Notes: a model not told the origin generated them from the sequence alone. DNA of 60,438 nucleotides, filler included, from 5 parts of 5 records of this genome joined end to end with filler, not necessarily neighbours in it, one strand, 5' to 3'. Counted from the first letter of the whole stretch, positions 7,995 to 44,801 are shown. Translations and numbers: made by a program.

Positions 7995-8785
7995 TATTCA
8001 ATGCCCCCAAATTGGGTTGGCCGCTTGTCCAAAAAGGCGCTCACCCCTTCGGCATAATCTTTTGAGCGACCGCAACGGCCCTGCATTTCAGCCTCCACGT
8101 CCAAGTGCTCGTCGAGCGTATGGTCGTGGGATGTTTGCAGCGCTTGCTTCATTTGCCCGAGGCCAAAGGTTGGGCCTTCGGCCATTTGCGCGGTCAGCTT
8201 GCGGGCTTCATCCATCAATTGGTCATCAGCCACGGCCTGCCAGATCATGCCCCAATCCACAGCCTGCTTGGCCATAACGGGCGTTGCTGTCATGCAGATA
8301 TATTTGGCACGTGCTTCGCCGATCAAGCGTGGCAAAATCCAGCTGCCCCCGGCATCAGGCACCAGCCCGACTTTGGCAAAGCTTTGGATGAATTTTGCGC
8401 TCTCCGCCGCCAGCACGATGTCGCAGCCGAGCGCGATATTAACCCCAGCTCCAGCCGCAACGCCATTTACGGCGCAGATGATTGGCTTGTTGATCGAACG
8501 GATCAAACGCACAAGTGGATTGTAAAAATTGGAAATGGTGGCGTGTAGATCCGGCGGCGTTTCCATTTTGCGCGGATCGCGGGCATCCAAATCCTGTCCA
8601 GCGCAGAAACCACGACCTGATCCGGTGAGCAGAATCGCCCGCACCGCATCATCATTTTTTGCCTCATTCAGCGCCTTTTGCAGCGCCTCATGCATCTCGT
8701 CATTGAACGAATTTAGACGGTCTGGACGGTTGAGCGCGATCTCAACCCAAGTCTCATTTTTGGTGACGATGATTGTATCGCTCAC
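7994..8785 (-). CDS. paaG: Ring-1,2-epoxyphenylacetyl-CoA isomerase PaaG
   Basis: Crotonase motifs LNRPDRLNSF, GFCAGQDL, AAGAG and GLVPDAGG. Confidence 0.92.
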   Translation of the reverse strand: MSDTIIVTKNETWVEIALNRPDRLNSFNDEMHEALQKALNEAKNDDAVRAILLTGSGRGFCAGQDLDARDPRKMETPPDLHATISNFYNPLVRLIRSINKPIICAVNGVAAGAGVNIALGCDIVLAAESAKFIQSFAKVGLVPDAGGSWILPRLIGEARAKYICMTATPVMAKQAVDWGMIWQAVADDQLMDEARKLTAQMAEGPTFGLGQMKQALQTSHDHTLDEHLDVEAEMQGRCGRSKDYAEGVSAFLDKRPTQFGGIE

Positions 8786-8865
8786 GCTAACCTCCCTTAA
8801 GAACTCACTTTTTTCCTTTTCGGACCAGCGAGAACAATCTCCATTTGAAAATTAGCTTTACATAA

Positions 8866-8879
8866 ACCGACTGGTTGGT
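8866..8879. promoter_or_regulatory. Putative TetR-type PaaR operator between the divergent paa operons
   Basis: ACCGA-CTGG-TTGGT, one mismatch from the ACCGA-N4-TCGGT palindrome I associate with PaaR. Confidence 0.55.
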
Positions 8880-8922
8880 CAATATATGTTTCAACGAAGA
8901 TCGACAGTGGGGGAGCAAATTA

Positions 8923-28604: not shown

Positions 28605-28704
28605 NNNNNNNNNNNNNNNNNNNNNNNNNNNNNNNNNNNNNNNNNNNNTTAATTAATTAANNNNNNNNNNNNNNNNNNNNNNNNNNNNNNNNNNNNNNNN
28701 NNNN
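28605..28704. other. Artificial contig linker
   Basis: N44-TTAATTAATTAA-N44. Confidence 0.99.
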
Positions 28705-29453
28705 CTCAACGATTTGCGCTGCCTTTCGGCCTTTACCGGCCGCGCATCCACACCGCGCGCATAACCATATAACTGCCGCCCAAAGCGACCAAAACGCTCC
28801 ACTAAGGCCAGCTCGCTCCACCCTTGCAGCTGCTCGCAGTTTTCGATGCCCAGTGCCGCCAACTTCGTCGCCATCACTTTGCCGACGCCGTGAATCTTGG
28901 TTACTGGCAGCGCACGAACAAAGTCATCGACCTGATCGGGCCGTATCACCGTAAGCCCGTCAGGTTTTTGCCAGTCGCTGGCAATCTTCGCCAAAAATTT
29001 ATTCGGTGCAACGCCCGCGGAAATAGTAATTCCCACTTCGCGAGCAACCGCTTGCCGGATCGCTTCGGCAATGCGGCTGGCGCTGCCCTGAAAATGCGGC
29101 GACTCGCTGACATCCAGGTAGGCCTCATCCAGGGACAACGGCTCGATCAGCTCGCTGTAGCGACTAAATATTTCACGAATCTGCGCAGCAACATGGCGGT
29201 ACTTATCCATATTCGGCGGGACCAAAATCAGCTGTGGGCAACGCTGCAATGCGGTTGCGGTCGGCATTGCCGAGTGCACACCATAGGCGCGCGCCTCATA
29301 GTTGCAGGTAGCGATCACGCCGCGCCGACTGGCCTTGCCACCAATGGCAATCGGCCTACCGCGCAAACGCGGGTCATCACGCATCTCCACCGAAGCGTAA
29401 AAACAATCGCAGTCGCAATGAATGATCTTTCTCGTGTTGAGCACCGACACCAT
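28705..29453 (-). CDS. dinB: DNA polymerase IV (3' truncated)
   Basis: RKIIHCDCDCFYASVE, CNYEAR, SLDEAYLD and KIASDWQKPDG. Confidence 0.96.
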
Positions 29454-29481
29454 GGCGCAGAAAACCCGCTTAAGCCAAATA

Positions 29482-29497
29482 CTGTACAAACATACAG
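29482..29497. promoter_or_regulatory. LexA SOS box (gammaproteobacterial type)
   Basis: CTGT-ACAAACAT-ACAG, 28 nt upstream of the dinB start. Confidence 0.88.
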
Positions 29498-29591
29498 ACT
29501 TTACGCGAGCAGCTAGCGCTTGTCACTCATGGTAGTGAGGTATACTGTGCGCCACACCACCCACGTTGAATTAAAAAGGAATGCCGTAGCA

Positions 29592-29993
29592 ATGAGTATT
29601 GGCAGTTGGACCCCGGACTCTGAAAAAGCCGCTATCACCATTGATCGAGACTTTCTCGAGCGCTGTATAGCACTGAGCGACGACGCGTCCCTGGCAACAC
29701 TCCCCTCGCCGTTCTCTGAGGAGGAGCAGCAGCGCTATAGCGCCGTCATGCGACTACCCGCTGAGCCCTGGCAACTCGCTGTGGCCGATTTCGACAACGC
29801 TGAGCTACTGGCACTCATTCGCTTCTTCACTGTTGCCGAAGAGCGGATTAGCGGCTGGGAAGCTGGCGCAGAATCCCCCGCCATTTGGATCAACAAAGTG
29901 TTGCGCAAACGCGGTGAAAAACTATCTGTTGAGACACTGCGCTGGATTCGCGCAAATAGCCGCAATCGCTTTATCCCCAATGGGGGCCTCTAG
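29592..29993 (+). CDS. Hypothetical protein (133 aa)
   Basis: MSIGSWTP...LIRFFTVAE...WEAGAESPAI...WIRANSRNRFIPNG; protein-like composition, function unknown. Confidence 0.75.
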   Translation: MSIGSWTPDSEKAAITIDRDFLERCIALSDDASLATLPSPFSEEEQQRYSAVMRLPAEPWQLAVADFDNAELLALIRFFTVAEERISGWEAGAESPAIWINKVLRKRGEKLSVETLRWIRANSRNRFIPNGGL

Positions 29994-30000
29994 GGCGCTG

Positions 30001-30291
30001 CTACTTCTGCTCTTTATTAAACGCTGCCAGCGCTTCGGGGCTGGCTTCTTTTTGGTATTTCGATTTCCATTGCGAATACGGCATGCCATAGACTCTTTCG
30101 CGCGCCGCGTCGTAATCCACCTCTATGCCCTGCTCTTCGGCTGCAGCCGCATACCACTTCGACAAACAGTTACGGCAAAAACCCGCCAGGTTCATTAAGT
30201 CGATATTTTGCACATCTTTGCGGCCGTCCAAATGCTCGAGCAAGCGGCGAAAAACCGCTGCCTCTATCGCATCGCTCTGTGACTTGTTCAT
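30001..30291 (-). CDS. DUF1244-family protein
   Basis: EAAVFRRL..HL..R.DVQNIDLMNLAGFCRNCLSKWY and VYGMPY..WK. Confidence 0.88.
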   Translation of the reverse strand: MNKSQSDAIEAAVFRRLLEHLDGRKDVQNIDLMNLAGFCRNCLSKWYAAAAEEQGIEVDYDAARERVYGMPYSQWKSKYQKEASPEALAAFNKEQK

Positions 30292-30411
30292 AATTTGTTC
30301 ACTCATTCGCTGCATTACTCTGTTCATTATCAGGAAATTTGCTATGTTAAGCCAACGAACAGACTTCCTGCTCGCGACGTACCCCAACACTTTATGACGG
30401 AGTCAGAAAGC

Positions 30412-30990
30412 ATGGCTAAACAAAAACTAGACCCTGTAGCGCTGATCAACCGGGAGATTGAATCTCTGGAAGATAAAGTAGAAAAGCTACGCGACCGCTT
30501 AATATCCGACGCGGATAAAGCACTGGAGCGCGCTAAGGCGCAAACTGAAAAAGCGCGAGCGAAAATTCGCCAGGAGCAGGAAAAGCTGCGCGAGCTGCAA
30601 AAGAAAGCCAAGGAAAATATGGATGCTCGCATACAGCGTCAGGTGGAGCGCGCCCACAAGGCCGTGGACTCTGCGCGCGAGCTTGAGGTGGACGCCAAGG
30701 CGCTGGTCATTATGGCCCGCGAACAAATGCAGGATTTAAAGGCTGACTATCAGCGTGCCAAGGCTCTGGCTAAGGCTGCCCGCGATGCTGCGCGCGACTT
30801 CGACAAGAAAAACCCACCTAAGAAAGCGGCCGCTAAAAAGGCAGCGGCAAAGAAAGCCCCTGCTAAAAAAGCCGCAGCCAAAAAGGCACCCGCCAAAAAA
30901 GCCGCTGCTAAAAAAGCACCAGCAAAAAAAGCTCCCGCTAAAAAGGCCGCAGCCAAAAAGGCAGCCGCTAAAAAAGCCCCCACCAGCTAG
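30412..30990 (+). CDS. AlgP-like histone H1-like protein
   Basis: Coiled-coil N-terminus followed by 11 KKA(A/P)(A/T) pentapeptide repeats. Confidence 0.8.
   Translation: MAKQKLDPVALINREIESLEDKVEKLRDRLISDADKALERAKAQTEKARAKIRQEQEKLRELQKKAKENMDARIQRQVERAHKAVDSARELEVDAKALVIMAREQMQDLKADYQRAKALAKAARDAARDFDKKNPPKKAAAKKAAAKKAPAKKAAAKKAPAKKAAAKKAPAKKAPAKKAAAKKAAAKKAPTS
30820..30984 (+). repeat. Coding 15-bp degenerate tandem repeat (x11)
   Basis: AARAARGCN(G/C)CNGCN-type units encoding KKAAA/KKAPA. Confidence 0.9.
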
Positions 30991-32141
30991 TCGTGACGAT
31001 CGCTGGCTGGCTCGCCGGCCAGCGTGACGACACTATTCAAAATCAACTGAATTAACTGCGTTTGCCGCGCGACGCCGGTTTTTGAAAATACCGAGCTGAG
31101 ATGCGACTTAGCCGTATTCCGAGAAATATTTAAGCTGAGCGATGCCTCGTCCAGGCTTTGCCCGTTAACCAGTCGCACCGCCAATTTAGACTCTGCAGGT
31201 GTTAAACCGAATAGTTCGATTAACACATCACTGGGTGCCTGACGCGGTGCCATGGGGTCACTAATGAACACCGCTACGGCCGGACGCCGCTCACCACCGT
31301 GGTCACTGTGCGGCAGGGGTCGTATCAGCAGGCTTAAGCCACTCAATGAGCTGGCATCTGCAAGGCGAAAGGCGCGCACACAGCCTGCCTCGCGCTGGTG
31401 ATGCGCCTGTATTACCTCGCCAAGTAGCATTTTGAAGTCTTGCTGCTCACGCCGATTTTCAAAACTCAGGCGTCCTCCCTGCAATGCGACACCGCGCCCC
31501 TGTGCTAACAGGCGCTCGGCCACTGGGTTGCTATTTAAGCTATCGCCGTTGGCATCCAGGGTAATCACGCCCACCGACAAACTGTCGATGGTATTGGCAT
31601 ACAGCACTCGCTCGCGTTCACTTTCACGTAACCGGGAGTGGATTTGCACCGCCTGTTTAATATGTGGCAGCAGTTGCTTGCACAGGGCCTTTTCCCGCGC
31701 GCCAAAATCTTCGCGGCTCTCTGGCCGCGTGACGCGCAGCCGTGCCAGTAGCTCCTCACCGTGCCATAAATCGGCACCCAGGATGTGCCGCACATTGGCT
31801 GGCTCTATATAATTTTGATAGTACTCGGACGCCTCAAACTCCTCTGCCGACATGTACTCAGCCACGGTGACGACATCGCCATCGGGAAGATTCACAAAGG
31901 GGTCTAAGGCAAAATAGGTCTCGTTGTAGGCGCGATAGATTTCCGGCGAAACCACCAGCGCGTTGAGTATCACGCCGGGGTCGTGCTCATTCGGCGGCCG
32001 CAGCAGCAAGGTCGCATAGTTACCGCCCAAGGCGTCCCTGAGCTGATCCAGAAACGCCTGCCAGGGGGGCGTTTCCAAAGTGCCACCGTAGAGCGCGCGC
32101 AGCAGAGCGTCCATACGCGGCGAGATAGAAATCTCAGACAT
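30987..32141 (-). CDS. LuxR-family HTH regulator with PAS-like sensor region
   Basis: C-terminal LFGLTPAES.LA..L..G.SL......ISRNTAKSHL..VFSKTGV.RQ. Confidence 0.88.
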   Translation of the reverse strand: MSEISISPRMDALLRALYGGTLETPPWQAFLDQLRDALGGNYATLLLRPPNEHDPGVILNALVVSPEIYRAYNETYFALDPFVNLPDGDVVTVAEYMSAEEFEASEYYQNYIEPANVRHILGADLWHGEELLARLRVTRPESREDFGAREKALCKQLLPHIKQAVQIHSRLRESERERVLYANTIDSLSVGVITLDANGDSLNSNPVAERLLAQGRGVALQGGRLSFENRREQQDFKMLLGEVIQAHHQREAGCVRAFRLADASSLSGLSLLIRPLPHSDHGGERRPAVAVFISDPMAPRQAPSDVLIELFGLTPAESKLAVRLVNGQSLDEASLSLNISRNTAKSHLSSVFSKTGVARQTQLIQLILNSVVTLAGEPASDRHD

Positions 32142-32232
32142 AGAAGATCGAGGCCATTGTGATGCAATAGCCTCGATTCTAAGCGCTGACCGCATGGAAT
32201 TCATCTATAGCGCACTAAATCCTCTCAGCGGT

Positions 32233-33021
32233 TTAATGTGGCAAGAAATCGCCACCATTTACATCGAGCGCGGCACCGGTCAGCGCTCGAGAGTACTCCG
32301 ACCCCAAAAACACAGCGGCTTTGGCGCAGTCGCCGTCATCGGGTATACGGCGCAGCGGGATATTGGCAGCTACAGCAGCTTTTTGCTCTTCGACACTGGG
32401 GCCGCCAGCCTCTGCATTCATTTGGAAATAGCCCTCGACCGACGGCCCCCACATCCAGCCCATATAGGCCGAATTCACACGAATATTGTCAGGCCCCAGT
32501 TCTAGCGCCAGGTGAGCGGTTGCACTGGCAAGCGCCGCCTTGGAGGCGCCGTAGCCGCCCTGAGTCGGCATGGGTTTGCGGGTTACCATGGTGTTGATCA
32601 TCACGATCGCGCCGCCGCCCTGCTTCTTCATTTGCGGCACGACTTCAAGCGTCAGCCCCATGGTGCCGAAGAAGTTCACATCCATGGCGTCTCGCCAGCT
32701 GTCCAAATCTGCCTCAGCGATAGGCCCAAAGTTTCCGGGGTTGTAGGCACTGTTAAACAACACGTCGATACGGCCAAATTCGGCAATTGTCTTGGCAACC
32801 AGCTCGGCACATTGCTTGCGGTCACTAATATCGGTAGCCACCTTCAATACCGCATTGTCCAGGCCCTCACTGCGAATCAGGGCTTCAGCATCATCGAGTT
32901 TACTGGCGGTGCGGGCACACATCGCCACTTTTGCTCCCTGGCGCGCGGCTTCAAGGGCCAGCTCCTGTCCCAAGCCCGGGCCGATACCCGACACAATGAC
33001 GACTTTGTCTCTAAGCAACAT
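32233..33021 (-). CDS. Short-chain dehydrogenase/reductase
   Basis: SGIGPGLG, YGASK and LDVNGG. Confidence 0.9.
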   Translation of the reverse strand: MLLRDKVVIVSGIGPGLGQELALEAARQGAKVAMCARTASKLDDAEALIRSEGLDNAVLKVATDISDRKQCAELVAKTIAEFGRIDVLFNSAYNPGNFGPIAEADLDSWRDAMDVNFFGTMGLTLEVVPQMKKQGGGAIVMINTMVTRKPMPTQGGYGASKAALASATAHLALELGPDNIRVNSAYMGWMWGPSVEGYFQMNAEAGGPSVEEQKAAVAANIPLRRIPDDGDCAKAAVFLGSEYSRALTGAALDVNGGDFLPH

Positions 33022-33090
33022 TTTGACTATCCTGTTTAATTATTCGAATTACTTGTCCCTGAAGCCTACCTAGGCTCGACCCGAGCAGCA

Positions 33091-33106
33091 CCACCCGAAT
33101 GGGTGG
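33091..33106. promoter_or_regulatory. Palindrome between the divergent SDR and outer-membrane protein genes
   Basis: CCACCC-gaat-GGGTGG. Confidence 0.4.
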
Positions 33107-33138
33107 AAGCGCCAAGCCAGAATATACAGCGAGGAAAC

Positions 33139-33837
33139 ATGCACCTACGTCGATATACCACCTCAGCACTACTCTGCCTGGCCGTGAGCACGCCTGCGCT
33201 CGCCGACACATCGCTGCGCCTACAGGCTTCAACGATTGGCGGTGGCGCGGAGCTTGGATACAGCTTTTCCCCGCAATTTGGCATTCGCGGTGGCGCCTTG
33301 TACGGCAGTTTTAAACTGGACTTCGAAGGGGATGACAACAACGGTATTGAGGGCGATGAGCTCAGCTACAAAAGCGATGTCGATCTGCGCAATGCCTATC
33401 TGCTGACCGACTGGCACCCCAGTGGCAAATGGTTTCGGGTAAGTGCAGGCATATTAATTAACAACAGCTCTGCTAAGGTTATTACCCGCTGCGAAGAAAA
33501 CTCTCCCGTACCTGGCACCACAAACTGTGAGTTCGGCAACAGCCGCTTTTCGCCCGCGATACTCGGAGATGTTATTACCAACATCGACTTCGAACCGGTG
33601 AGCCCCTACCTCGGTATTGGCTGGTCCAGAGCTACCGGGCAAGGTTTTCACTTCAGCGCCGACGTGGGCGTTGCCTACCTCGGGGACGCCAACGTTAAGA
33701 TTCGCTCGACGGGAAGCTGCAACACCAACCAGCAATGTCGAGAGGAAGTGGCAGCCGAACAGCGCGAAGTTGAAAATGAATTGGATGACTTGAACCTGTT
33801 GCCTATCGCGATGCTCGCGCTGAGTTATCGGTTCTAA
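33139..33837 (+). CDS. Outer membrane beta-barrel protein
   Basis: RBS GAGG, signal peptide ending ALA, amphipathic strands (PYLGIGW), C-terminal LSYRF and four loop Cys. Confidence 0.8.
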   Translation: MHLRRYTTSALLCLAVSTPALADTSLRLQASTIGGGAELGYSFSPQFGIRGGALYGSFKLDFEGDDNNGIEGDELSYKSDVDLRNAYLLTDWHPSGKWFRVSAGILINNSSAKVITRCEENSPVPGTTNCEFGNSRFSPAILGDVITNIDFEPVSPYLGIGWSRATGQGFHFSADVGVAYLGDANVKIRSTGSCNTNQQCREEVAAEQREVENELDDLNLLPIAMLALSYRF

Positions 33838-33852
33838 GGCCAAATTAGATAT

Positions 33853-35406
33853 TTAAAGACCCGACGGGAAACGAATACGCACCTCAGTTCCTTCCCCTAA
33901 GGCAGACAAGACCTCAACCTGCCCTTTCAGCTGTTGGCTGACAAGATTAAAGACAATATGCATGCCCAGGCCACTCCCGCCTGCGCCGCGCTTGGTGGTG
34001 AAAAACGGTTCAAAAATCTTTTCTCGCGCCTCTTCATCCATACCGCAGCCATCATCGCTATAGCAGATTTCAATATCGCCGTCGCACTCGGTTACCACCA
34101 CGCGTATGCGGCCGGCTTCACCGCCTGGAAAGGCATGCATAAGGGAATTCATCAACAAGTTGGTAAATATCTGCGAGATCGCGCCAGGCACGGAGTTGGC
34201 TTCCAGTGACGCCTCACAGTCTATTTCTACAGCGATTTGCGTATTCTTCAAGTTTGGTCGCAGACTCAGCAGGGTTTCATCAAAATAGCTTTTTAGATTA
34301 AATTTCCTGCGTTCAAAGCTGGTTTGATCCACCGCTACCTGTTTAAAGCTGTGCACTAAGTCTGCCGCTCTGCGTAGATTATTGAGAATAATCTCGGTGG
34401 ACTGCATGCAGTGCTCGAAGTAATGCTTCAGACCACTGCCGGTCAATTTCCCTTCGTTGTAGGCCTGCTCCGCTTCTATACTCTCGGCGCGCAGCGTCGA
34501 CGCGGCCGTGACACTCACGCCAACGGGGGTATTCACCTCATGCGCCACACCGGCCACCAGGCCACCCAGTGAGGCCATTTTTTCAGTGGCGACCAACTGT
34601 TTCTGCGTTCGGTTCAAGTCCTCTACGGCCTTGCGAAGTTCAGTATTCGCCGCATCGGCCTGATGTATACGGAGCGTCAGCTCTTCCTTCGCTCTCGCCA
34701 AGTCGGTATCACGGGTGGCAATGTGGGAGAGCATGACATTAAAGCCATCGATTAATTCTCCGACTTCGTCGTCGCCATGCTTGTCGGCGCGCAAACTATA
34801 GTCACCCGACAGCGACACTTTTCGCGTGGTATCGAGCAACGCAAGAATCGGCCCGGCAATGAGTTTCTGTAAAGTATTGGATATAACAAAAGCAATACCC
34901 ACACTGAGCAGCAGCATAAGCAGCAGCAACATAATATCGAGGCGGGTACTTGCCCACAGGTCGGATAGCTGACGTTCAATCACCAGGCGCCCAAGGCGCT
35001 CGCTGCCGAGCCAGACATCGCGATTCACTGTAAGCACCTGCAGCTTGGAGGCCTTCACGTCTAACAGGCTTAGCGGGCAGTCCTTGGCATCACTGCCGCG
35101 CACATAACTGGCAAATAGCTGCGCTTGTTTGGTTTCCCCTTGATACAAACACGCGCGATGGATTTCCGGCATGCCACGCAGCGATGACAATATTTCCTCA
35201 GCGGCCTGGGAGTCTGAAAAACTCATTGCCGCCGTTGTATTGAGCGAAAAAACCTCTGCAACGGCCAGCAAATTCTTCTGGACGGTTTCCCGCACGCTAA
35301 ACCAGTTATACAGCACGAAAACCGTTTCGATCATCACCAACACGATCGTGACCGTGCCGACAATCGACACCAGTATTTTTCGCTGTATCGGCAAATCCCT
35401 TAGCAT
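33853..35406 (-). CDS. Sensor histidine kinase: 2 TM, YfiN-like (CHASE8-type) periplasmic domain, HAMP, HisKA, HATPase
   Basis: Periplasmic AAMSFSDSQAAEEILSSL...LFASY, HAMP DEVGELIDGFN, H-box VAHEVNTP, and DDGCGM, FEPFFTT, GSGLG. Confidence 0.93.
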   Translation of the reverse strand: MLRDLPIQRKILVSIVGTVTIVLVMIETVFVLYNWFSVRETVQKNLLAVAEVFSLNTTAAMSFSDSQAAEEILSSLRGMPEIHRACLYQGETKQAQLFASYVRGSDAKDCPLSLLDVKASKLQVLTVNRDVWLGSERLGRLVIERQLSDLWASTRLDIMLLLLMLLLSVGIAFVISNTLQKLIAGPILALLDTTRKVSLSGDYSLRADKHGDDEVGELIDGFNVMLSHIATRDTDLARAKEELTLRIHQADAANTELRKAVEDLNRTQKQLVATEKMASLGGLVAGVAHEVNTPVGVSVTAASTLRAESIEAEQAYNEGKLTGSGLKHYFEHCMQSTEIILNNLRRAADLVHSFKQVAVDQTSFERRKFNLKSYFDETLLSLRPNLKNTQIAVEIDCEASLEANSVPGAISQIFTNLLMNSLMHAFPGGEAGRIRVVVTECDGDIEICYSDDGCGMDEEAREKIFEPFFTTKRGAGGSGLGMHIVFNLVSQQLKGQVEVLSALGEGTEVRIRFPSGL

Positions 35407-35957
35407 CAGGAACTACCCTTCGCAGCAGAGCGGCGCACCGTTCTCGCCAAGCTCAAAAGCCGCGAACTCACCGACATACCGGAGCGGTGGATATTGGCCT
35501 GATTGATATCAAAGCGCAGCTTACCCGACACGATAACAAAACTGATCATGCCGCCCGCATCGATAAAGTCGCCGTTATCGGCGATGGTTAAGATGTGGTC
35601 TTGGGGTAATTTTTGCAGCCAGTAGCGCTGTAGCTCTCCGCTATTATCAGCGAGGTATAGCACCTCGCACCCCTCGCTCTCTTCGGGGAGGAGTATCAAT
35701 CGGCTGCGTATGCCGAGGTCATTGCTCGATTTCGACTTGATTAATGCGGAAAGCGCGATGGCAATGTCGCGGTCACCGACCACGCATATATCAATTGCCT
35801 CCTCGCCACCCCGTATCGCCGCTGGGGGCCAACTGATAAAGCGCGTGAAGTTAACCAGATACGCCGCCTTAACGCGCTGCTCCAGGCCTTGCCCAAACGC
35901 ATTGCCGGCCAGGCCCAACACCAAAGCTATTGCACAGAACCGCCTGCCCCAAATCAT
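35406..35957 (-). CDS. YfiR-family (DUF4154) periplasmic protein
   Basis: Signal peptide, VKAAYLVNFTRFISWP, ICVVG, CEVLY, GGMI.F......RFDIN and SSRLLSLA. Confidence 0.92.
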   Translation of the reverse strand: MIWGRRFCAIALVLGLAGNAFGQGLEQRVKAAYLVNFTRFISWPPAAIRGGEEAIDICVVGDRDIAIALSALIKSKSSNDLGIRSRLILLPEESEGCEVLYLADNSGELQRYWLQKLPQDHILTIADNGDFIDAGGMISFVIVSGKLRFDINQANIHRSGMSVSSRLLSLARTVRRSAAKGSS

Positions 35958-37888
35958 TAGAACATCCAGCTCAATTGCGCTTGCACACTGCGCCGTATCT
36001 CTACGCCGCCACCAAACTCCGCATGGGCATCGTCATTGAGGTTACTCACGCGCACAGACGCTTCGAGCTGGTCGTTGATACGCCACATTACATTCATATC
36101 AATTGCCGCGTAGGCATCAACATTTTGATCATCCAGAGGGCCAATCCATCGTGCCGCAAGGAACAGCGACCAGCGATCATTGATATCCCAATCCAGGCGC
36201 GTTTTCAGCTGATGACTGGGATCGTTGGCATCGGCATCGGCAATAGACTGATCCAAACTGCCCGGCGGAGTGGAGGCATCCAGGTCGAAATAGCGATAGC
36301 TGGTCAGTAACTCGATGTTTGCTCTTGCTCGCCATCGCGCGGTCAGCTCAACACCATGGCTGCGCGCGCTGCCAATATTATCGATTAATATCGGTGGCGG
36401 CGTCTGAGGGTTAGTCAGGTCATCAGTGAGTCCACGCAGCTCCTCGTACTCGTTATAAAAGCCGGCGATGTCTATGGACAAACTGCCGCTCAACTGCTGA
36501 CGATACCCCGCCTCCAGCGCCGTCAATTCCTCGGAGTGAAAACTGCGATCACCGCCGAAAAAGCCACCCGAAAACGAGACATCTTGATCCAGACGGTTGG
36601 GAATACGAACCGCCCGAGACCAGGCTGCCCATACCGTGCTGTCGGGATTAATTTTATAGCGAGCCCGGACACTTGGTTGAAACTCATCGCCACTGTAATC
36701 GTTGTGCTCGAGTTTAGCGCCCAGAGTGAGGCGCAGGCGCTTGTTTAAAAAATTGATTTGATCCTGGATAAACAAATCATAGGTTTCGTCCTCGCGCTTG
36801 CGAGGGCTAAAGTCGGTGAGAAAGGGGTTAACATCGCCGATGTGATCGCGACTAAACCTAAAGCCACCGCCGATCACCAGCTCCTGCCGCTGCCCGATCT
36901 GGCGATTATGCTTCACTTCGAAATCCAGCAGGCGTCGCTGCTCAGAGAAATTCAGTCGATTGTTAAAAGCGCTGCGATCATAGACGAGTTGGTATTCTGA
37001 ATTCGCCGTACCGGCATGCTGCTGACTTAGACGCATTATCAGATTTTCGCCGCGGTGATATTCTTGCTTGCCCCCTGTCGGCACAGCCACGTGGCCGCGG
37101 TAGGCATCACCCTGAACGGTTAAGCGCAGCGCATCCGATAATTTATTATCAGTGCGAAATCCCGCTTGGCGGTGTACCCACTCATCACCGCTATCCCCGC
37201 CACTGGCAGCTTGCTGTTCGCTGTGCCACTGACTTTTGGCATAGACACGATAGAAACCGTCGCCAGCAAACTCATCGCCGTACCTCGCCTCGGTATAGCC
37301 TCGATAGTTTCCACCGCCGCCCGCGGCAACCCACCCTCCGAGCGTGTCCTTGGCTGAGCGCGTAACGATATTCACCACGCCATTGACAGCATTCGCCCCC
37401 CATAGCGCAGCGCCGGGGCCACGTATAACCTCAATGCGCTCTATGTCGCGCATCACAGTATCTTGGGTATACCAAAATACGCCGGAAAATAACGGCGTAT
37501 ATAAGCTGCGACCGTCCATTAATACTTCGAGCTTATCGGCAAGTGTGCTGTTGAAACCGCGAGCGGTTACCGCCCAGCTATGTGAATCAACCCTTGCCAC
37601 CTGCAGCCCTGGCACCAAGCGCAGGGCCTCGGCAAGTGTGCGCACGCCGCTGCGGCGAATATCCTCCGTGTCCAGCACAAACACTGCCGCGGCAGTATCT
37701 TGCAAGGGCTCCGCCCGCCTAGAAGCCGAGACCACCTCGATATCCATTAGGTCTTCGAGACTGAGTTCGCCAAGTGTTTCCAACGACGCTAGCTGAATTG
37801 TTGACGAGGCGGCGCTCAACGAGAAAGTGACCAGGCCGAGCGCAATACCCGTTTGCAATAAAAGGCGCATAACCATTGTCCGCGTCAT
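35957..37888 (-). CDS. TonB-dependent outer membrane receptor
   Basis: LSLEDLMDIEVVSASR, plug motif IERIEVIRGPGAALWGANAVNGVVNIVT, and C-terminal LSWMF. Confidence 0.95.
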   Translation of the reverse strand: MTRTMVMRLLLQTGIALGLVTFSLSAASSTIQLASLETLGELSLEDLMDIEVVSASRRAEPLQDTAAAVFVLDTEDIRRSGVRTLAEALRLVPGLQVARVDSHSWAVTARGFNSTLADKLEVLMDGRSLYTPLFSGVFWYTQDTVMRDIERIEVIRGPGAALWGANAVNGVVNIVTRSAKDTLGGWVAAGGGGNYRGYTEARYGDEFAGDGFYRVYAKSQWHSEQQAASGGDSGDEWVHRQAGFRTDNKLSDALRLTVQGDAYRGHVAVPTGGKQEYHRGENLIMRLSQQHAGTANSEYQLVYDRSAFNNRLNFSEQRRLLDFEVKHNRQIGQRQELVIGGGFRFSRDHIGDVNPFLTDFSPRKREDETYDLFIQDQINFLNKRLRLTLGAKLEHNDYSGDEFQPSVRARYKINPDSTVWAAWSRAVRIPNRLDQDVSFSGGFFGGDRSFHSEELTALEAGYRQQLSGSLSIDIAGFYNEYEELRGLTDDLTNPQTPPPILIDNIGSARSHGVELTARWRARANIELLTSYRYFDLDASTPPGSLDQSIADADANDPSHQLKTRLDWDINDRWSLFLAARWIGPLDDQNVDAYAAIDMNVMWRINDQLEASVRVSNLNDDAHAEFGGGVEIRRSVQAQLSWMF

Positions 37889-37976
37889 TGTTGTTATTTG
37901 CTTAGTGGGTGACTATTGCATCCACTTTTCAAACTAGGACAAAAGCGCCAACTGCACCATTGCAGCTTTTACCTAC

Positions 37977-39521
37977 TCAGGCCTCCACTGCTGCGGCTTG
38001 ACGGTATTTTTCTTGGAGGGGTTTTTTATACATTTTCCCGTTGTCCTTCCTCGGTAACTGCGCCTCAAAGAAAAACTCCTTCGGGCACTTCAATGCCGAG
38101 ACAGAGTCACGACACCAGCCTCGCAACCGGTCAGCCAGCTCTGCATTACCAGTGCACCCCTGCTCTGGCTGAACCACCGCGACCACTCGTTCGCCAAACT
38201 CCTCATCTGGAAGCCCAAACACGGCGACATCAGCGACCTCTGGGTGAGCAATCAGGGTATTCTCCACTTCTTGAGGATAGATGTTCACTCCACCTGAAAT
38301 AATCATAAAGTCGCGGCGATCGGCCAGATAGAGATAACCCTCGTCATCGACATAGCCCATATCACCAACCGTAGCCCAGCCCTCGCGGTGGTGAGCGCCA
38401 GCGGTCTTCTCCGGTTCATTGTGGTATTCAAAGTCGCCAAAGCCAGAGAAGTAAATCATCCCGGTTTCGCCGCAGGGCAATTCATTGCCATCGTCATCGA
38501 CGATGTGTACCTCGCCCATCAGAGACTGGCCCACTGAGCCAGGGTGTGCGAGCCACTGCGCGCTATCAATGGCGGTCATGCCAATACCTTCACTGGCGGC
38601 GTAATACTCGTTGATAATCGGCCCCCACCATTCGATCATCTTGCGCTTCACATCAGCGGGACACGGCGCCGCCGCATGCGTCGCCGCCTTCAAGGAGCTG
38701 AGATCGTATTTGCTGCGCACCGCTTCAGGCAGTTTCAGCAGGCGGATAAACATAATGGGTACCCACTGACTGCAATCCACACGGTATTTTTCGATCGCTT
38801 GAAGCGACAGCTCTGGGTCAAAACCGTCCATCATTACCACCGTACCGCCCAGGGCCATTGCCGCCATAACGCTGTGCATGGGGGCCGCGTGGTAAAGCGG
38901 CGCCGGCGTCAGATACGTCGACTCACTATTAATCCCCAGGAACGCAGCAATACCCTGCATAACGGCTGGCACCTCGTCAAAGGTTTGCTCGGGTAGGCTG
39001 GGTTTAATGCCTTTTGGCTGGCCGGTCGTTCCCGAAGAGTACAGCATCGGAACCCCCGCACATTGCTGCGCTAGTGGTACCGACGGACACTCGGCCATCG
39101 CCGCTTGCAGGGAGTCAAAATTGGGCGCCTCACCAGTGCTGATAAACCAGTGCTGTACGGCCGGCAATGCCGACCTGTCTAGTTGCTGCGCCGTTTCAAG
39201 GTAGCGAGGTGAACAGATAAACAGCTTGGCCCCTGAATTTTCCAGGATGTACGCCACTTCGGCAGGCCGCAAATGACTGTGCAGTGGCGTGAACACCAAG
39301 CCGCTGCGCTGGGCTGCCCAGGCAATTTGAAGAAAGCAGTGGCTATTTTCCATTTGATAGGCAATGTGGTCCCCGGCACGTAAACCGCGGCTGTAAAACA
39401 GTTGGGCGAGCTGGTTGGACTGGGCATCCAACTCGGCATAAGTCATCACCTCACCCGTGTTGGCAAGGATACAGGCGGCTTTTTGCGGTTGTTTCTGGGC
39501 GTGAAATTGCGGGTGCTGCAC
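37977..39521 (-). CDS. Acyl-CoA synthetase (AMP-forming)
   Basis: LYSSGTTGQPKG, YAASE, GDMGY.D and IISGGVNIYPQEVE; GTG start after GGAG. Confidence 0.93.
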   Translation of the reverse strand: MQHPQFHAQKQPQKAACILANTGEVMTYAELDAQSNQLAQLFYSRGLRAGDHIAYQMENSHCFLQIAWAAQRSGLVFTPLHSHLRPAEVAYILENSGAKLFICSPRYLETAQQLDRSALPAVQHWFISTGEAPNFDSLQAAMAECPSVPLAQQCAGVPMLYSSGTTGQPKGIKPSLPEQTFDEVPAVMQGIAAFLGINSESTYLTPAPLYHAAPMHSVMAAMALGGTVVMMDGFDPELSLQAIEKYRVDCSQWVPIMFIRLLKLPEAVRSKYDLSSLKAATHAAAPCPADVKRKMIEWWGPIINEYYAASEGIGMTAIDSAQWLAHPGSVGQSLMGEVHIVDDDGNELPCGETGMIYFSGFGDFEYHNEPEKTAGAHHREGWATVGDMGYVDDEGYLYLADRRDFMIISGGVNIYPQEVENTLIAHPEVADVAVFGLPDEEFGERVVAVVQPEQGCTGNAELADRLRGWCRDSVSALKCPKEFFFEAQLPRKDNGKMYKKPLQEKYRQAAAVEA

Positions 39522-39728
39522 GATAGTCACTCCATAAAAATTATTATTGTTTTCGCTCACTACTTTTCTAAGTAGCTTGCTGACGATAAGCGCGCAGCGC
39601 TCTGGGATCAAGCCTTGCTCATACCAAAAACACGAGCCAAGACAAGCGGGAATGCGCGGCCATTGTTGTCAGTGAACACATTACCTATACTGGCAAGCAC
39701 AATGTATTCAAACACAGGGAATCGGCAA

Positions 39729-40532
39729 ATGAGCGCTTTTGACCAACTCATGGCAGCGGTGCGAGGCAGCGACGGCCTTTACACAGCAAATGTTGACGAA
39801 AGCTGGCTGCAGGGCCGCACCGCATTTGGGGGGCTTAGTAGTGCCCTGATCGCCCAAGCCATGCGCAGTGAGATAGAGCCAGCCCGCCGCTTGCGCTCCC
39901 TGGCAGTAAGCTTTGTTGGCCCGGCCCCCGCTGGCAATCACCAAGTGGCACTTCGCCACTTACGCGACGGCGGCTCGGTTACCCACATTCAAGGAGAGCT
40001 GCGCTGTGAGGGTGAAGTGGCTACCGCGATCAATGCGACGTATGGCAAGGATCGTCAATCTGCGGTCGTTGTCGAGGGACCGGCGATGCCGACCTCGATT
40101 CCGGCGCCGCAGGACTGCATGCTACTGCCTTTCATTGACGGCCTGACGCCCGCGTTTACGCAACACTTTGATATGGCGCTCGCCAGCGGTCACCTGCCAT
40201 TATCGGGGGGAGACAGCGCTGATTTTTCACTGTGGCTGCGTTTTCGCGATACCACTGCGCTCACCGAAAGTGCGCTGATTGCCCTGGCAGATGCACCGCC
40301 AATGCCAGGCCTGAATATGATCAAACCGCCTGGGGTTGGCAGTTCGTTGAGCTGGTATTTGGAGTTTCCCAATGCGGTAAGTGCCGGCGATACAGCCGAC
40401 AACTGGTGGTTTATGGACTACCGCAGCCAAGCCGGGAGTAATGGTTACTTTTGCAACTACGCAACAATTTGGTCACCGAGCGGCGTGCCCATAATGTTTA
40501 GCCGCCAAGTCGCTACAGTGTTCGAGAAGTAA
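39729..40532 (+). CDS. Double-hotdog acyl-CoA thioesterase family protein
   Basis: WLQGRTAFGGL, LIALADA.P and SRQ. Confidence 0.85.
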   Translation: MSAFDQLMAAVRGSDGLYTANVDESWLQGRTAFGGLSSALIAQAMRSEIEPARRLRSLAVSFVGPAPAGNHQVALRHLRDGGSVTHIQGELRCEGEVATAINATYGKDRQSAVVVEGPAMPTSIPAPQDCMLLPFIDGLTPAFTQHFDMALASGHLPLSGGDSADFSLWLRFRDTTALTESALIALADAPPMPGLNMIKPPGVGSSLSWYLEFPNAVSAGDTADNWWFMDYRSQAGSNGYFCNYATIWSPSGVPIMFSRQVATVFEK

Positions 40533-40611
40533 TGGCGTAGGCCAGTAGAGTCGTAACCAGAAGAAAAAGAGCGAGCCTGTCACACATGGCAGACTCGCAT
40601 TGAGTCGTTAT

Positions 40612-41052
40612 TTACGGCTGAGTGTTCTGAATGCTCTGTGCCGAATGGTCTTTAAAGTAAAGACGAAATGGCACGTTGCGCTGCTTGCCCAGATAGATGT
40701 AAAAACCGTAGCGGTCGTTGGCATAGTCCTGAACGAACTCATAGCGAGGGCTGATCGCTGGTGCCTCCGGGTCAACCCGAGGGGCAGTAACCAGCACTTC
40801 CTCTATCTCGGTTGGCGGTTGATCGCCCGATGCCGGTAGCGACACCAGTACACGATATTCTGTCTTGCCGGGGACATTCTCCACCGCCTCAACGCGCGCA
40901 CCCGAGACCGTATCAATAAATCCTACCTGGCTTTCAATAATACCGCTTTGTCGTGAAACCGTTTGTGCCGACGGCTGCGGCTGAGCGCAGGCGGTAACTG
41001 CCACCCCCAGCAACAGTAAACCGGCGCAAGACAAGCTATGACGCATAGACAT
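40612..41052 (-). CDS. Hypothetical lipoprotein with an internal TonB-box-like motif
   Basis: Lipobox V-T-A-C22 and EIEEVLVTAPR. Confidence 0.7.
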   Translation of the reverse strand: MSMRHSLSCAGLLLLGVAVTACAQPQPSAQTVSRQSGIIESQVGFIDTVSGARVEAVENVPGKTEYRVLVSLPASGDQPPTEIEEVLVTAPRVDPEAPAISPRYEFVQDYANDRYGFYIYLGKQRNVPFRLYFKDHSAQSIQNTQP

Positions 41053-41141
41053 GGGCGCATTCCTTTTTATACCGATAATGCGGGAATGCTAACACCTGGC
41101 CAAAGGAATAACAGCCAGCTATTTGCGTTCCCACGCTATCG

Positions 41142-42278
41142 CTAGGCGCAAAAAGCCTCGCCCACGGCTATTTTGCTGCCCAGCGCGGCAAGGCTGCGCG
41201 CGGAGCTACCCAGCATCATTTCGTTGTGACGCAACCACGTACAGTAGCGCCACAGCGGGTAGTCGCGGTCAATGCCCGTGCCACCGTGCAAGTGCTGGGC
41301 GGCGTAGCTAACCCGATGACCAACATCCCCTGCCCACACTTTCGCAATCGCCACTTCGACACTCGCGTCGACACCATCGTCGAGACGACTGATCGCCTGA
41401 TAGCAATTCAAACGCAGGCATTCCACGTCGATAAAACAATTAGCCGCGCGGTGGCCCACTGCCTGAAATGTCGCAATCGGCACGCCAAACTGCTGGCGCT
41501 CGGCCGTGTAAGACGCGGTCATCCGCATCGCTTTATCACTGGCACCAAGTTGATGCGCGCACAATGCTGCCGTCGTATGCTCGGCGACCGAAGCGAGCAA
41601 CTGCTGCGCCTGCTCCCCGCGGGCCAGAATATTCTCTGCGCCCACGCGCACATTACTGAGCGTCAGCCGGTATTGTGGCTCGTAAGTCGTCACTTCCATC
41701 GCTTCAAGCGCAACACCCTCTGCCTGACGAGGCAGCATTACAACAACGGCCCCGTCACCGTCGGTCGCGGCCAGCAGTACATAGTCAGCTTGCGCCGCAA
41801 AGGGAACGCAGAGCTTCTCACCGCTGATCAGCACCGCCTCGCCGTCAGCCCGCGCACTGCATACACGCGGCTGAGTGGGGTCCTCATTGTTCGCTTCCAT
41901 CAACGCGGCTGTGAGCAACTGTTCACCGCTCACCACTCCGGGCAGTAAGCGCTGCTTTTGCTCGGCACTGCCGAATTGCTGCACCGGCATCGCCGCCGAA
42001 ATACAGTGAGAAATAAATGGCAGCGGAGCAATATTTCGCCCGACTTCTTCTGCAATCAGGGCCGCTTCAAAAAAACCGAAGCCCATACCGCCATATTGCT
42101 CTTCAATGGCAACACCCAGCAGCCCCGCCTGAGCAACCTGCTGCCATAGTTCGCGGTCAAAACGCTCCGCCGCGTAGCTGTCGTACTTGGCGAGCTTTTC
42201 CGCTGTTACCTGTTCGCCGAGAATTTCGCGCGCAAGGTTTTGCACATCGCGCTGCTGTTCTGAAAGTCCGAAATCCAT
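41142..42278 (-). CDS. Acyl-CoA dehydrogenase, FadE27/ChsE5-like subunit
   Basis: RFDRELW, ERQQFGVPIATFQAV and HLHGGTGID.DYPL.RY; lacks the C-terminal GGTNE motif. Confidence 0.85.
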   Translation of the reverse strand: MDFGLSEQQRDVQNLAREILGEQVTAEKLAKYDSYAAERFDRELWQQVAQAGLLGVAIEEQYGGMGFGFFEAALIAEEVGRNIAPLPFISHCISAAMPVQQFGSAEQKQRLLPGVVSGEQLLTAALMEANNEDPTQPRVCSARADGEAVLISGEKLCVPFAAQADYVLLAATDGDGAVVVMLPRQAEGVALEAMEVTTYEPQYRLTLSNVRVGAENILARGEQAQQLLASVAEHTTAALCAHQLGASDKAMRMTASYTAERQQFGVPIATFQAVGHRAANCFIDVECLRLNCYQAISRLDDGVDASVEVAIAKVWAGDVGHRVSYAAQHLHGGTGIDRDYPLWRYCTWLRHNEMMLGSSARSLAALGSKIAVGEAFCA

Positions 42279-42329
42279 AACTGTTTTCTCTCTATTCGTT
42301 CACTCTTCGCCGGGGTAAACACGACGCAT

Positions 42330-43517
42330 CTAGCGCGATGCCCGGGGCATCCACAAACCGGCGGCGGAAATGATGTCACGCTGAATTTCGTTGGTGCCGC
42401 CACCAAACGTAATAATTGATGCCGTGCGATACAGGCGCTCAATTCGCGATGCGATGGGGTCGGCACCCGGCGTGCGACGATTAATCAGTGACGCTTGGCC
42501 AATGACCTCGCCCAACAGGCGATACACCTCGATGAAAAACTCAGACCCGTAGACTTTCGCCGCTGAGGCATCGGCCATATCCAGCTGGCCTTCGGTCATT
42601 GCCCACGCCTGCTTGTAGCACACCAGTTTAAGTGCCTCGACACCGGCACGGACTTTCGCCAGGTTGATCTGCACCCAGGGTTGGTCGATGATTTTTCCAC
42701 CCTCGGGCAGGTCAGTTTGCTGGGCCCACCGCACTACGTTATTAAACATTTCTGCAGTGGGTCCAAAGTTCACCAAACTGAGACGCTCGCGGTTCAGCTG
42801 GCTGGTAATCAGCTTCCAGCCCGCGTTTTCCTCGCCCACCAGCGCGTCGTCATTCACGCGAATATTGTCGTAGTAGGTTGCGTTGGTGCGCACGCCACCC
42901 AAGGTGACCACCGGACTGCACGACCAGCCTGGATCGTTAGTGGGCACCAAAAACATGGAAATACCTTTGTGCGGTTTCGCTGCGTCGGGATCCGTTCGGC
43001 AGGCAAGCCAAACGTAGTCGCAAAAATGCGCGAGGCTGGTCCACATTTTTTGACCGTTGATCAGCCAGCCGTCGCCGTCGCGCACCGCCGATGTTTTCAA
43101 ACTCGCCAGATCGGTGCCGGCGCCCGGCTCGGAGTAGCCAATCGCAATCAAACATTCACCGGCGAGGATCTTGGGTACGATCTCTCTCTTCTGCCATTCA
43201 TTACCGTGCTCGGCCAGCTGCGGCCCGACCGACTCGGTTGTCAGGAATGGGAAGGGGTAACCCGCGCGCATGACTTCTTCTACGAAAATAAACTGCTCGA
43301 TGGGGCTCATACCGCGACCACCGAGCTCTTTTGGCCAGCCAACACCTATCCAGCCATCGCGCCCCATTTGCTTGAGCGCCTCGCGCCATAGCGGGCCACC
43401 GCCCTCTCCCATGCTCTCGTCGCACTCGGCCTTGAGCTCCGGCGTCATCAATGCCTCGAAATACGCGCGTAATTCTTTGCGCAGCGCATTCTGCTCTGCG
43501 CTAAACTCAACTTTCAT
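42330..43517 (-). CDS. Acyl-CoA dehydrogenase, FadE26/ChsE4-like subunit
   Basis: LR.ELRAYF..LMTPE, IGYSEPGAGTDLASL, QLNRER and TFGGGTNEIQRDII. Confidence 0.88.
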   Translation of the reverse strand: MKVEFSAEQNALRKELRAYFEALMTPELKAECDESMGEGGGPLWREALKQMGRDGWIGVGWPKELGGRGMSPIEQFIFVEEVMRAGYPFPFLTTESVGPQLAEHGNEWQKREIVPKILAGECLIAIGYSEPGAGTDLASLKTSAVRDGDGWLINGQKMWTSLAHFCDYVWLACRTDPDAAKPHKGISMFLVPTNDPGWSCSPVVTLGGVRTNATYYDNIRVNDDALVGEENAGWKLITSQLNRERLSLVNFGPTAEMFNNVVRWAQQTDLPEGGKIIDQPWVQINLAKVRAGVEALKLVCYKQAWAMTEGQLDMADASAAKVYGSEFFIEVYRLLGEVIGQASLINRRTPGADPIASRIERLYRTASIITFGGGTNEIQRDIISAAGLWMPRASR

Positions 43518-44228: not shown

Positions 44229-44701
44229 ATGAGTAACGATATCGCCATCTTGGGCGTCGGCATGCACCCCTGGGGCAAATGGGGCAAGAACTTCAGCGAG
44301 TACGGCGTGCACGCTGCGCGCGCGGCACTGAAAGACGCCGGCATTCCCTGGCAGGATGTGGGCTTTGTTTCGGGCGCAGCAACCATGCGCTGCGGCTATC
44401 CCGGTTATGTTGCCGGGGCGACCTTCGCCCAGGCATTGGGCTGGCAGGGCGCGCAAGTAAATACGTCTTACGCCGCCTGTGCCTCCGGCTCCCAGGCGCT
44501 CGCCGCCGCACAAGCAAAAATTCTTGCCGGCGAATGCGAAGTTGCCTTAGTTGTCGGCGCCGACACCACCCCCAAGGGCTTCCTCGCGCCGGCCAAAGGC
44601 TACCGCCCGGAAGACCCGGATTGGCTGCGTTTTTACCTGGGAATTACCAACCCCACCTACTTTGCACTGTATGCCCGCCGTCGCATGGATTTGTTTGGCG
44701 A
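44229..44701 (+). CDS. SCP-x/Ltp-type thiolase-like protein (3' truncated)
   Basis: ILGVGMHPWGK, AALKDAG, ACASG and ALVVGAD; paired with DUF35. Confidence 0.85.
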
Positions 44702-44801
44702 NNNNNNNNNNNNNNNNNNNNNNNNNNNNNNNNNNNNNNNNNNNNTTAATTAATTAANNNNNNNNNNNNNNNNNNNNNNNNNNNNNNNNNNNNNNNNNNN
44801 N
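44702..44801. other. Artificial contig linker
   Basis: N44-TTAATTAATTAA-N44. Confidence 0.99.

Follow-up and report, generated by a model that had tools for sequence, protein, structure and literature searches.

The locus analyzed here is a three-gene operon in a stretch of DNA of 60,438 nucleotides, filler included (hereafter, the window), where it occupies positions 33853 to 37888 on the minus strand. Open reading frame (ORF) calling identified, head to tail and in this order, genes for a TonB-dependent receptor (35957..37888, 643 amino acids (aa)), a YfiR-like periplasmic protein (35406..35957, 183 aa) and a sensor histidine kinase (33853..35406, 517 aa); all positions of operon features given below are likewise on the minus strand. 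Adjacent genes are joined by 1-nucleotide overlaps of stop and start codons, TAATG at 35955..35959 for the receptor stop and the YfiR-like start, and TGATG at 35404..35408 for the YfiR-like stop and the kinase start. A preliminary description of the locus, made from the sequence alone, had presented these genes as a rewired variant of the YfiBNR signaling system and knew of no mechanistic account of it.

The receptor combines a Plug domain (residues 62-171, 37376..37705; Pfam PF07715, 3e-21) with a TonB_dep_Rec_b-barrel domain (PF00593, residues 198-617, 4.1e-39) which, together with the strands that extend to residue 642 in the AlphaFold2 (AF2) model, delimits a beta-barrel at residues 198-643 (35960..37297). 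The AF2 model (mean predicted local distance difference test (pLDDT) score of 87.5) shows a barrel with the plug. No STN domain was matched in the receptor by Pfam at E<=0.01, and the model shows just a disordered tail at the N-terminus. The predicted signal peptide is followed by an extension of about 21 residues (residues 28-48, 37745..37807) which ends at the TonB box. The TonB box region (residues 49-56, DIEVVSAS, 37721..37744) was placed by alignment of residue 49 with chain residue 6 of BtuB, which we take to be the first residue of the BtuB TonB box.

The second protein belongs to the DUF4154 (YfiR/HmsC-like) family (residues 28-172, 35442-35876; Pfam, 6.6e-38), is similar to the solved YfiR in the Protein Data Bank (PDB; phmmer, 8e-7), and is predicted by AF2 to form a single lobe (pLDDT 85.5). 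In a Foldseek search with this model, the eleven best matches are all YfiR structures (TM ~0.74), followed by single-lobe and two-lobe substrate-binding proteins. In Pseudomonas aeruginosa, YfiR is reported to repress YfiN via the periplasmic domain of the latter and to be sequestered by YfiB at the outer membrane, with Met59 of YfiB entering a hydrophobic pocket of YfiR (A164, I169, V176, V180 and L181 over F151); Cys71 and Cys110 of YfiR are described as redox-sensitive, and the Cys145-Cys152 disulfide as essential for stability (PMC4655355). In the window protein, C58 (ICVVG) and C97 (GCEVLY), which are kept in 42 and 46 of the 47 relatives, respectively, align with Cys71 and Cys110, whereas the Cys145/Cys152 pair has no counterpart, the aligned positions being I132 and S139. 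The pocket residues F151, A164, I169, V176, V180 and L181 correspond in the alignment to I138, I151, I156, V163, L167 and L168; among these, I138 (40/47), L167 and L168 (46/47 each) are some of the best-kept positions of the family.

The kinase contains a periplasmic CHASE8 sensor domain (residues 39-143, 34978..35292; Pfam PF17152, 3.3e-16) which, as read from the translation, is flanked by two hydrophobic segments, and a HAMP domain (residues 182-229, 34720..34863; Pfam, 2.8e-8). Residues 17-248 match the NCBIfam model NF007423 (DgcN/YfiN) at 3.7e-20. The output portion is HisKA-like (a weak Pfam match, 0.0017) plus a HATPase_c catalytic domain (residues 409-515, 33862..34182; Pfam, 5.9e-23), and no GGDEF domain was matched by Pfam in this protein. 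The predicted phospho-acceptor is His289 in the motif AHEVNTP (34540..34542), as judged from the computed position and the comparison of H-boxes.

The operon shares with YfiBNR (TpbB/HmsCDE; P. aeruginosa, Escherichia coli, Yersinia) a periplasmic protein of the DUF4154/YfiR fold, an inner-membrane sensor with CHASE8 and HAMP domains, the hydrophobic character of the partner-binding pocket and the Cys71/Cys110 pair, but differs in the output of the sensor (histidine kinase instead of the GGDEF domain of YfiN), in the outer-membrane partner (TonB-dependent receptor instead of the OmpA-like lipoprotein YfiB), in the missing disulfide, and in the gene order, receptor, YfiR, sensor. No gene of the YfiB type was found in the operon or beside it, where the neighbors code for a CarO-like porin and for an acyl-CoA synthetase (no search for YfiB was extended to the rest of the genome), and none of the 51 window ORFs of at least 100 aa, the set that was scanned to the exclusion of shorter ones, contains a receiver, anti-sigma or extracytoplasmic function (ECF) sigma domain. 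The preliminary description had named most of these traits, including the overlapping codons, the two retained cysteines, a YfiN-like sensor recognized by eye and coupled to kinase rather than GGDEF output, the missing YfiB, a receptor of 643 aa devoid of STN, and the lack of an ECF factor or response regulator nearby, and on all these points the present analysis agrees with it.

To assess the conservation of the triad, two collections of loci were compiled. The first came from a scan in which each prokaryotic species was represented by one genome and which yielded 505 relatives of the YfiR-like protein; the best 80 loci were kept, with a YfiR ORF called in 79 of them. In 69 of the 79 loci, the gene directly preceding the YfiR-like gene encodes a receptor; in two, the receptor gene is downstream of the sensor gene; and no receptor is in view in the remaining eight, one of which is cut at a contig end; no YfiB-type gene was found beside the seven receptor-less loci that were scanned. 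Going by record titles, these loci represent eight phyla (Acidobacteriota, Verrucomicrobiota, Nitrospirota, Thermodesulfobacteriota, Myxococcota, Gemmatimonadota, Planctomycetota and Pseudomonadota), and the recurrence of the same gene order in 69 of the 79 related loci puts the arrangement far beyond chance. Pfam detects CHASE8 in 55 of the 67 ORFs scanned downstream of the YfiR-like gene, the other 12 being mis-called or assigned to no family. Among the 55 CHASE8 ORFs, 46 contain HATPase_c (14 of these with a receiver domain), three contain GGDEF and EAL, and six are fragments or cut by contig ends. A conserved triad with variable outputs, as anticipated in the preliminary description, is thus what the loci display.

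The second collection was selected independently of likeness to the window: DUF4154 was detected in 36 of 121 Pseudomonadota genomes, and the 30 best-scoring loci were analyzed with 1.5-kb flanks using Pfam; several of these come from the same genera and are mutually non-independent. A receptor barrel is encoded immediately upstream in at least 15 of the 30 loci (a lower bound, with no upstream ORF called in four loci) and downstream in one, and a CHASE8 sensor is encoded downstream in 28. The canonical YfiN architecture (CHASE8-HAMP-GGDEF, ~420 aa) is present in just two loci; the receptor-linked kinase form far outnumbers it, and the notion that the triad was rewired from YfiBNR is not supported. 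Eight of the 30 loci lack a receptor, the upstream gene being hisF, FabMG or an unassigned ORF. The three genes appear to be coupled, given the 1-nucleotide overlaps, the upstream receptor in 69/79 loci and the downstream CHASE8 sensor in 55/67 and 28/30 cases; conversely, the eight loci of the first collection with no receptor in view indicate that the periplasmic protein and the sensor can exist as a pair. Altogether, the module is a conserved signaling unit.

Several loci depart from the typical layout. In seven loci of one family in the second collection, the YfiR-like gene follows hisF or FabMG and precedes a gene for a CHASE8-PAS-PAS sensor, the output of which lies beyond the fetched flank; the upstream ORF of one of these (L102) was assigned to no family. 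Two loci (L020 and L078) contain expanded modules of the form YfiR-like, receptor, YfiR-like, sensor, and two others (L029 and L051) contain two tandem receptors followed by a single YfiR-like gene. A metagenome-assembled genome (MAG) of Planctomycetota encodes an ECF sigma factor directly after the CHASE8 kinase of the triad (L075, 5878-6585), the sole link to ECF-type surface signaling among the loci scanned.

The receptor extension carries a distinct sequence motif. Its core, L39..L42-S-L-E45-D-L47-M48 (37745-37774), corresponds to the consensus L-x-x-L-S-[LI]-E-x-L-M directly before the TonB box. In an alignment of 47 sequences, E45 and L47 are invariant (47/47), and L39 (45/47), S43 (41/47) and M48 (38/47) are highly conserved, as are V52 (46/47) and S56 (45/47) in the TonB box region. 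The motif is kept across 61 aligned receptors adjoining YfiR-like genes and is also carried by a second receptor clade, the similarity of which to the receptor of the window reaches E values of only 1e-20 to 1e-30. In this part of the AF2 model, the pLDDT stays under 50 (residues 17-42) or reaches about 51-58 (residues 41-60), and a PDB search with the 48-residue tail alone gave no match. The preliminary description had taken the motif for a free-standing acidic N-terminal helix; it is instead part of a flexible tail that directly abuts the TonB box. Because these residues are invariant and yet the tail is predicted to be disordered on its own, it bears the signature of a docking motif.

The specificity of the tail was assessed in the genome of Spongiibacter marinus DSM 17750, a stand-in that is 97% identical to the window over positions 29000-43000 and encodes a YfiR-like protein 99% identical to that of the window. 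When a hidden Markov model (HMM) of the tail was run against the N-terminal portion of each of the 49 ORFs with a Plug domain in this genome, the YfiR-linked receptor scored 37.7 bits (E 2.6e-12), whereas the highest score among the other 48 was 1.6 bits; most of these have a simple TonB box (type L-E-E-V-x-V-T-A) soon after the signal peptide. In another genome (G144), the motif is present in one of the four receptors, encoded 2 kb upstream of the sole DUF4154 gene. A strict DNA pattern of the motif matched in three of 201 gammaproteobacterial genomes, compared with two matches of the reversed control pattern, and the sole one of the three inside a receptor is that of G144. The pattern missed the YfiR-linked receptor of a third genome (G035), one of 61 receptors there, which has G in place of M and for which the HMM was used instead (35.9 bits). 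In these genomes, the tail is restricted to YfiR-linked receptors, a possibility that the preliminary description had proposed to test for the LSLEDLM motif, and this outcome favors physical coupling between the receptor and the YfiR-like protein. A YfiR tree labeled by receptor clade was considered as evidence of co-evolution and set aside: the clades are interspersed, with 7 changes, at least 3 of them forced (quick tree), and because some loci hold both receptor types in tandem, we make no claim of co-evolution from it.

The model that we favor, with about even confidence, is that of an envelope-spanning signaling module in which the TonB-dependent receptor is the outer-membrane input and takes the place of YfiB, its freed tail capturing the YfiR-like protein and releasing the kinase. 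The free YfiR-like protein would be a soluble periplasmic go-between that binds the CHASE8 domain of the kinase and sets its activity, holding the kinase off by analogy with YfiR and YfiN. A ligand at the receptor, or the action of TonB on the adjacent TonB box, would free the flexible tail with its L-x-x-L-S-L-E-D-L-M core, and the freed tail would capture the YfiR-like protein, probably in the pocket that takes Met59 of YfiB in P. aeruginosa YfiR. The released kinase would then autophosphorylate on the predicted His289 and pass the phosphate to an unlinked response regulator, a candidate for which is discussed below.

The same conservation and specificity of the tail would also fit a scheme in which it touches the CHASE8 domain of the kinase directly, as FecA touches FecR, with the YfiR-like protein acting as a competitor or chaperone. 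FecA/FecR/FecI resembles the window operon in that the signal would enter the periplasm through an N-terminal stretch preceding the TonB box, but the FecA-type extension is a folded domain of ~80 residues, whereas the receptor of the window has a tail of ~21 residues and lacks STN, and no anti-sigma or ECF gene is found among the window ORFs scanned. In favor of direct contact, the CHASE8 sensor accompanies the receptor about as often as YfiR does. Against it, a tail of this length is short for spanning the periplasm, and in the polycyclic aromatic hydrocarbon (PAH) sensing pathway of Cycloclasticus, the receptor PahS is reported to bind the kinase weakly (dissociation constant ~1.7e-4 M) and the periplasmic protein tightly (9e-8 M) (PMC10570129). 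We consider such direct contact very improbable.

Another reading would confine the receptor to co-regulation: as in YfiBNR, the YfiR-like protein and the kinase would sense stress or redox state in the periplasm, the receptor would be a transporter that is co-expressed with them or under their control, and the tail would serve, for example, a dedicated TonB paralog. This is compatible with the YfiR-like/CHASE8 pairs that occur without a receptor in 8/79 and 8/30 loci, with the match of C58 and C97 to the cysteines reported as redox-sensitive in YfiR (PMC4655355), and with the position of the tail next to the TonB box, which makes a role in TonB recognition plausible. It is harder to reconcile with the occurrence of the tail in only one of the 49 receptors of a genome, the YfiR-linked one, with its retention in two receptor clades that have diverged but have the YfiR neighborhood in common, and with overlapping codons and a gene order fixed in eight phyla, a linkage stronger than is usual for a regulator and its target. 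On balance, co-regulation alone appears quite unlikely.

For the favored model, in which the tail captures the YfiR-like protein, the downstream part of the pathway can be approached through the genes that follow the sensor. In a scan of 44 loci, the gene after the sensor encodes a receiver-only protein in 9 cases, REC-HD/HD-GYP in 2, REC-GGDEF-EAL in 1, triple-REC-GGDEF in 2, and in several cases a hybrid kinase. The kinase of the nearest relatives, a Spongiibacteraceae MAG (L004) and two Litorivivens (L007 and L017), is followed by REC-DUF3369, and in L007, the operon continues with a REC-kinase and then a GGDEF-EAL gene. According to a published description, DUF3369 is a GAF-like domain found in response regulators with ties to cyclic di-GMP (c-di-GMP) enzymes (bioRxiv 10.1101/2021.11.05.467447). 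S. marinus has one DUF4154 gene and one DUF3369 gene, ~85 kb apart on the same contig, the latter within a cluster that consists of a kinase, REC-DUF3369, a REC-kinase (REC-HATPase) and PAS-GGDEF-EAL (L084, G042:C8:222000-236000, 6011-11072). The S. marinus REC-DUF3369 shares 50-56% identity with the regulators linked to the triads of the relatives, on a par with the 53.7% found among those regulators themselves. The kinase of this cluster, which has two transmembrane segments and no periplasmic domain, shows 49% core identity to the window kinase and a nearly identical H-box, and the H-box of the window kinase is common to five related kinases. The cluster resembles the downstream half of the longer Litorivivens operon, detached from the rest.

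Given the synteny in the relatives and the likeness of both the regulator and the kinase, we infer that the window kinase probably feeds the REC-DUF3369/REC-kinase/GGDEF-EAL relay. Because the REC-DUF3369 regulator clusters with REC-kinase and PAS-GGDEF-EAL, the final output is probably c-di-GMP turnover. The kinase had been called an orphan in the preliminary description, which is accurate locally, as no receiver domain is encoded among the window ORFs scanned, but apparently not for the genome, where a likely cognate relay lies elsewhere.

The neighborhood itself has been recognized by curators, as NCBIfam includes dedicated models for all three families: NF053590 (TOL_0244 receptor), NF053591 (TOL_0243 YfiR-like) and NF053592 ('HK near YfiR-like'). 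These models are the best full-length matches of the three window proteins, NF053592 covering residues 6-230 of the kinase, and the adjacent order receptor, YfiR-like protein, kinase is shared with the window operon; the scores of the window proteins are sub-threshold, so they are close relatives rather than called members. The models offer names only, and we found no mechanistic paper on these families in open-access PubMed Central (PMC) and bioRxiv. The TOL_0244 gene of Thalassolituus oleivorans is reported to rise sevenfold on the n-C28 alkane (PMC6304351), and its product to have 40% similarity to OmpS, a receptor that Alcanivorax dieselolei requires for alkane sensing (PMC6304351, PMC5174103).

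A functional analog was published in 2023, so that the principle of signaling from a receptor via a periplasmic adaptor to a kinase is already in print. In the PAH sensing pathway of Cycloclasticus, the receptor PahS, the periplasmic protein PahP and the kinase PahK are encoded together and the regulator PahR is unlinked; the pathway was demonstrated by co-immunoprecipitation, surface plasmon resonance, two-hybrid and Förster resonance energy transfer experiments, according to which PahS binds PahP and PahP binds PahK, the affinity between PahS and PahP shifts with the ligand, and PahP has a higher affinity for PahK once loaded (Wang et al., iScience 2023, PMC10570129). The layout is thus similar to that of the window operon and its candidate regulator, and the binding order, receptor to periplasmic protein to kinase, with a c-di-GMP link downstream, is the one that we propose. 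However, PahP is described as a two-lobe substrate-binding protein of 318 aa, whereas the YfiR-like protein is modeled as a single lobe, and PahK (771 aa) is described without a periplasmic sensor domain, whereas the window kinase has CHASE8; the paper mentions no YfiR, DUF domains, TonB box or receptor tail (PMC10570129). The window proteins are likened here to PahS, PahP and PahK through the published descriptions of the latter. PahP presumably belongs to the PF04392 substrate-binding family, and a comparison of the tails of PF04392-linked receptors was considered and dropped, as PF04392 was not found in G042 (S. marinus), G144, G035 and G001 (the comparison genome nearest to the window).

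The Pah pathway suggests that the window operon could instead work as a ligand shuttle: the YfiR-like protein would receive a small hydrophobic molecule from the receptor, leave the receptor once loaded, bind CHASE8 and activate the kinase, and the tail would be a resting dock rather than a trap. The published Pah model is identical in logic, with ligand-dependent affinities (PMC10570129); the alkane induction of TOL_0244 and the part played by OmpS in alkane sensing point in the same direction (PMC6304351, PMC5174103), and the operon is located amid genes of fatty-acid and aromatic-acid catabolism, including those for acyl-CoA synthetase, thioesterase and acyl-CoA dehydrogenase. Nevertheless, the single-lobe protein of 183 aa lacks the two-lobe cleft described for PahP, and the characterized YfiR is reported to act by repression that is relieved through sequestration (PMC4655355), so that we regard a shuttle as unlikely.

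The proposal that the freed tail captures the YfiR-like protein has to contend with several other observations. The restriction of the tail could partly reflect the shared descent of one receptor family, and the CHASE8 domain or a dedicated TonB is equally possible as its docking target. In eight of the 79 loci, the YfiR-like protein and the sensor occur with no receptor in view. PahP activates the kinase by bringing the ligand to it, a logic contrary to that of sequestration (PMC10570129). The phosphotransfer partner is drawn from synteny in other genera, and the relay of S. marinus already has a kinase of its own. The S. marinus reference genome, although 97% identical to the window over positions 29000-43000, is distinct from the window's own assembly, and the scores with the dedicated NCBIfam models are all below the curated cut-offs (634 vs 645 bits for the receptor, 123.1 vs 125 for the YfiR-like protein and 166.1 vs 194 for the kinase).

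Of the flanking genes, the CarO-like gene (33103-33837, plus strand) is convergent with the kinase gene and encodes a small outer-membrane protein of 244 aa (NCBIfam 1.4e-13, under the cut-off, with no Pfam match); an ORF of similar size is found at its place in S. marinus and Neomelitea salexigens. On the other side, the acyl-CoA synthetase gene (37977-39611) is separated from the receptor gene by an 88-nucleotide gap (37889..37976) which contains one weak terminator-like stem (37958-37944) and no promoter-like site, the scan for promoters and terminators having given nothing above the shuffled expectation. Rfam yielded zero matches in the window, and consequently no riboswitch upstream of the receptor gene. 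A PAS and LuxR-type helix-turn-helix regulator without a receiver domain is encoded at 30987-32204 (minus strand), 1.6 kb from the kinase gene, and could be an unrelated one-component regulator.

The operon is located in the part of the window (14001-46000) where the G+C content is 0.51-0.58, compared with 0.59-0.62 at both window ends, and which may be a variable region. The nearest comparison genome, G001, has no DUF4154 gene and shares with the window only short pieces of DNA at 29000-43000; the YfiR-like family is present in none of the 25 genomes of its genus, so the module is patchy among close relatives.

Elsewhere in the window, ORFs at 7063-7563, 28653-29489, 44229-44753 and 44808-46685 show partial family matches (thiolase, 1-153/401; DNA polymerase IV, 5-248/357; lipid-transfer protein, 3-161/399; and resistance-nodulation-division (RND) permease, model positions 411-1036), with the RND permease directly after the lipid-transfer protein; these may be frameshifts, rearrangements or simple artefacts of ORF picking. 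A 556-aa protein with 2Fe-2S ferredoxin and adenylate/guanylate cyclase catalytic domains is encoded at 23500-25170 (minus strand). A 231-aa ORF at 30295-30990 (plus strand), the start of which overlaps a DUF1244 gene on the opposite strand, has a coiled-coil-like N-terminal half and C-terminal AKKAAAKKAP-type repeats, and belongs to no Pfam family.

Hitherto, the only role known for YfiR has been the repression, relieved by one lipoprotein, of one diguanylate cyclase. In the loci sampled here, which span at least eight phyla, most of the genes of the YfiR family are located between a gene for a TonB-dependent receptor and one for a CHASE8 histidine kinase. The new elements are the tail motif with its specificity for YfiR-linked receptors and the candidate relay through an unlinked regulator; as far as open-access PMC and bioRxiv reach, the receptor/YfiR/CHASE8-kinase triad, its tail motif and its breadth are not in print. 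More tentatively, and with the odds somewhat against it, the tail could be a short docking motif for YfiR-type proteins that defines a third kind of TonB-dependent transducer, neither of the STN/anti-sigma type nor a plain transporter, which gates two-component and c-di-GMP signaling by ligand-dependent capture of a periplasmic repressor; the triad would then be the common form of YfiR systems, and YfiBNR a minority derivative.

The motif is a cheap and precise experimental handle, amenable to point mutants and peptides. If the tail is a dock for YfiR, a simple linear motif would connect nutrient or surface cues sensed at the outer membrane with two-component and c-di-GMP control, a role in signaling would fall to a large class of TonB-dependent receptors that are so far unassigned, and the reported sensing of alkanes and PAH by marine oil degraders would be placed in a general mechanistic context.

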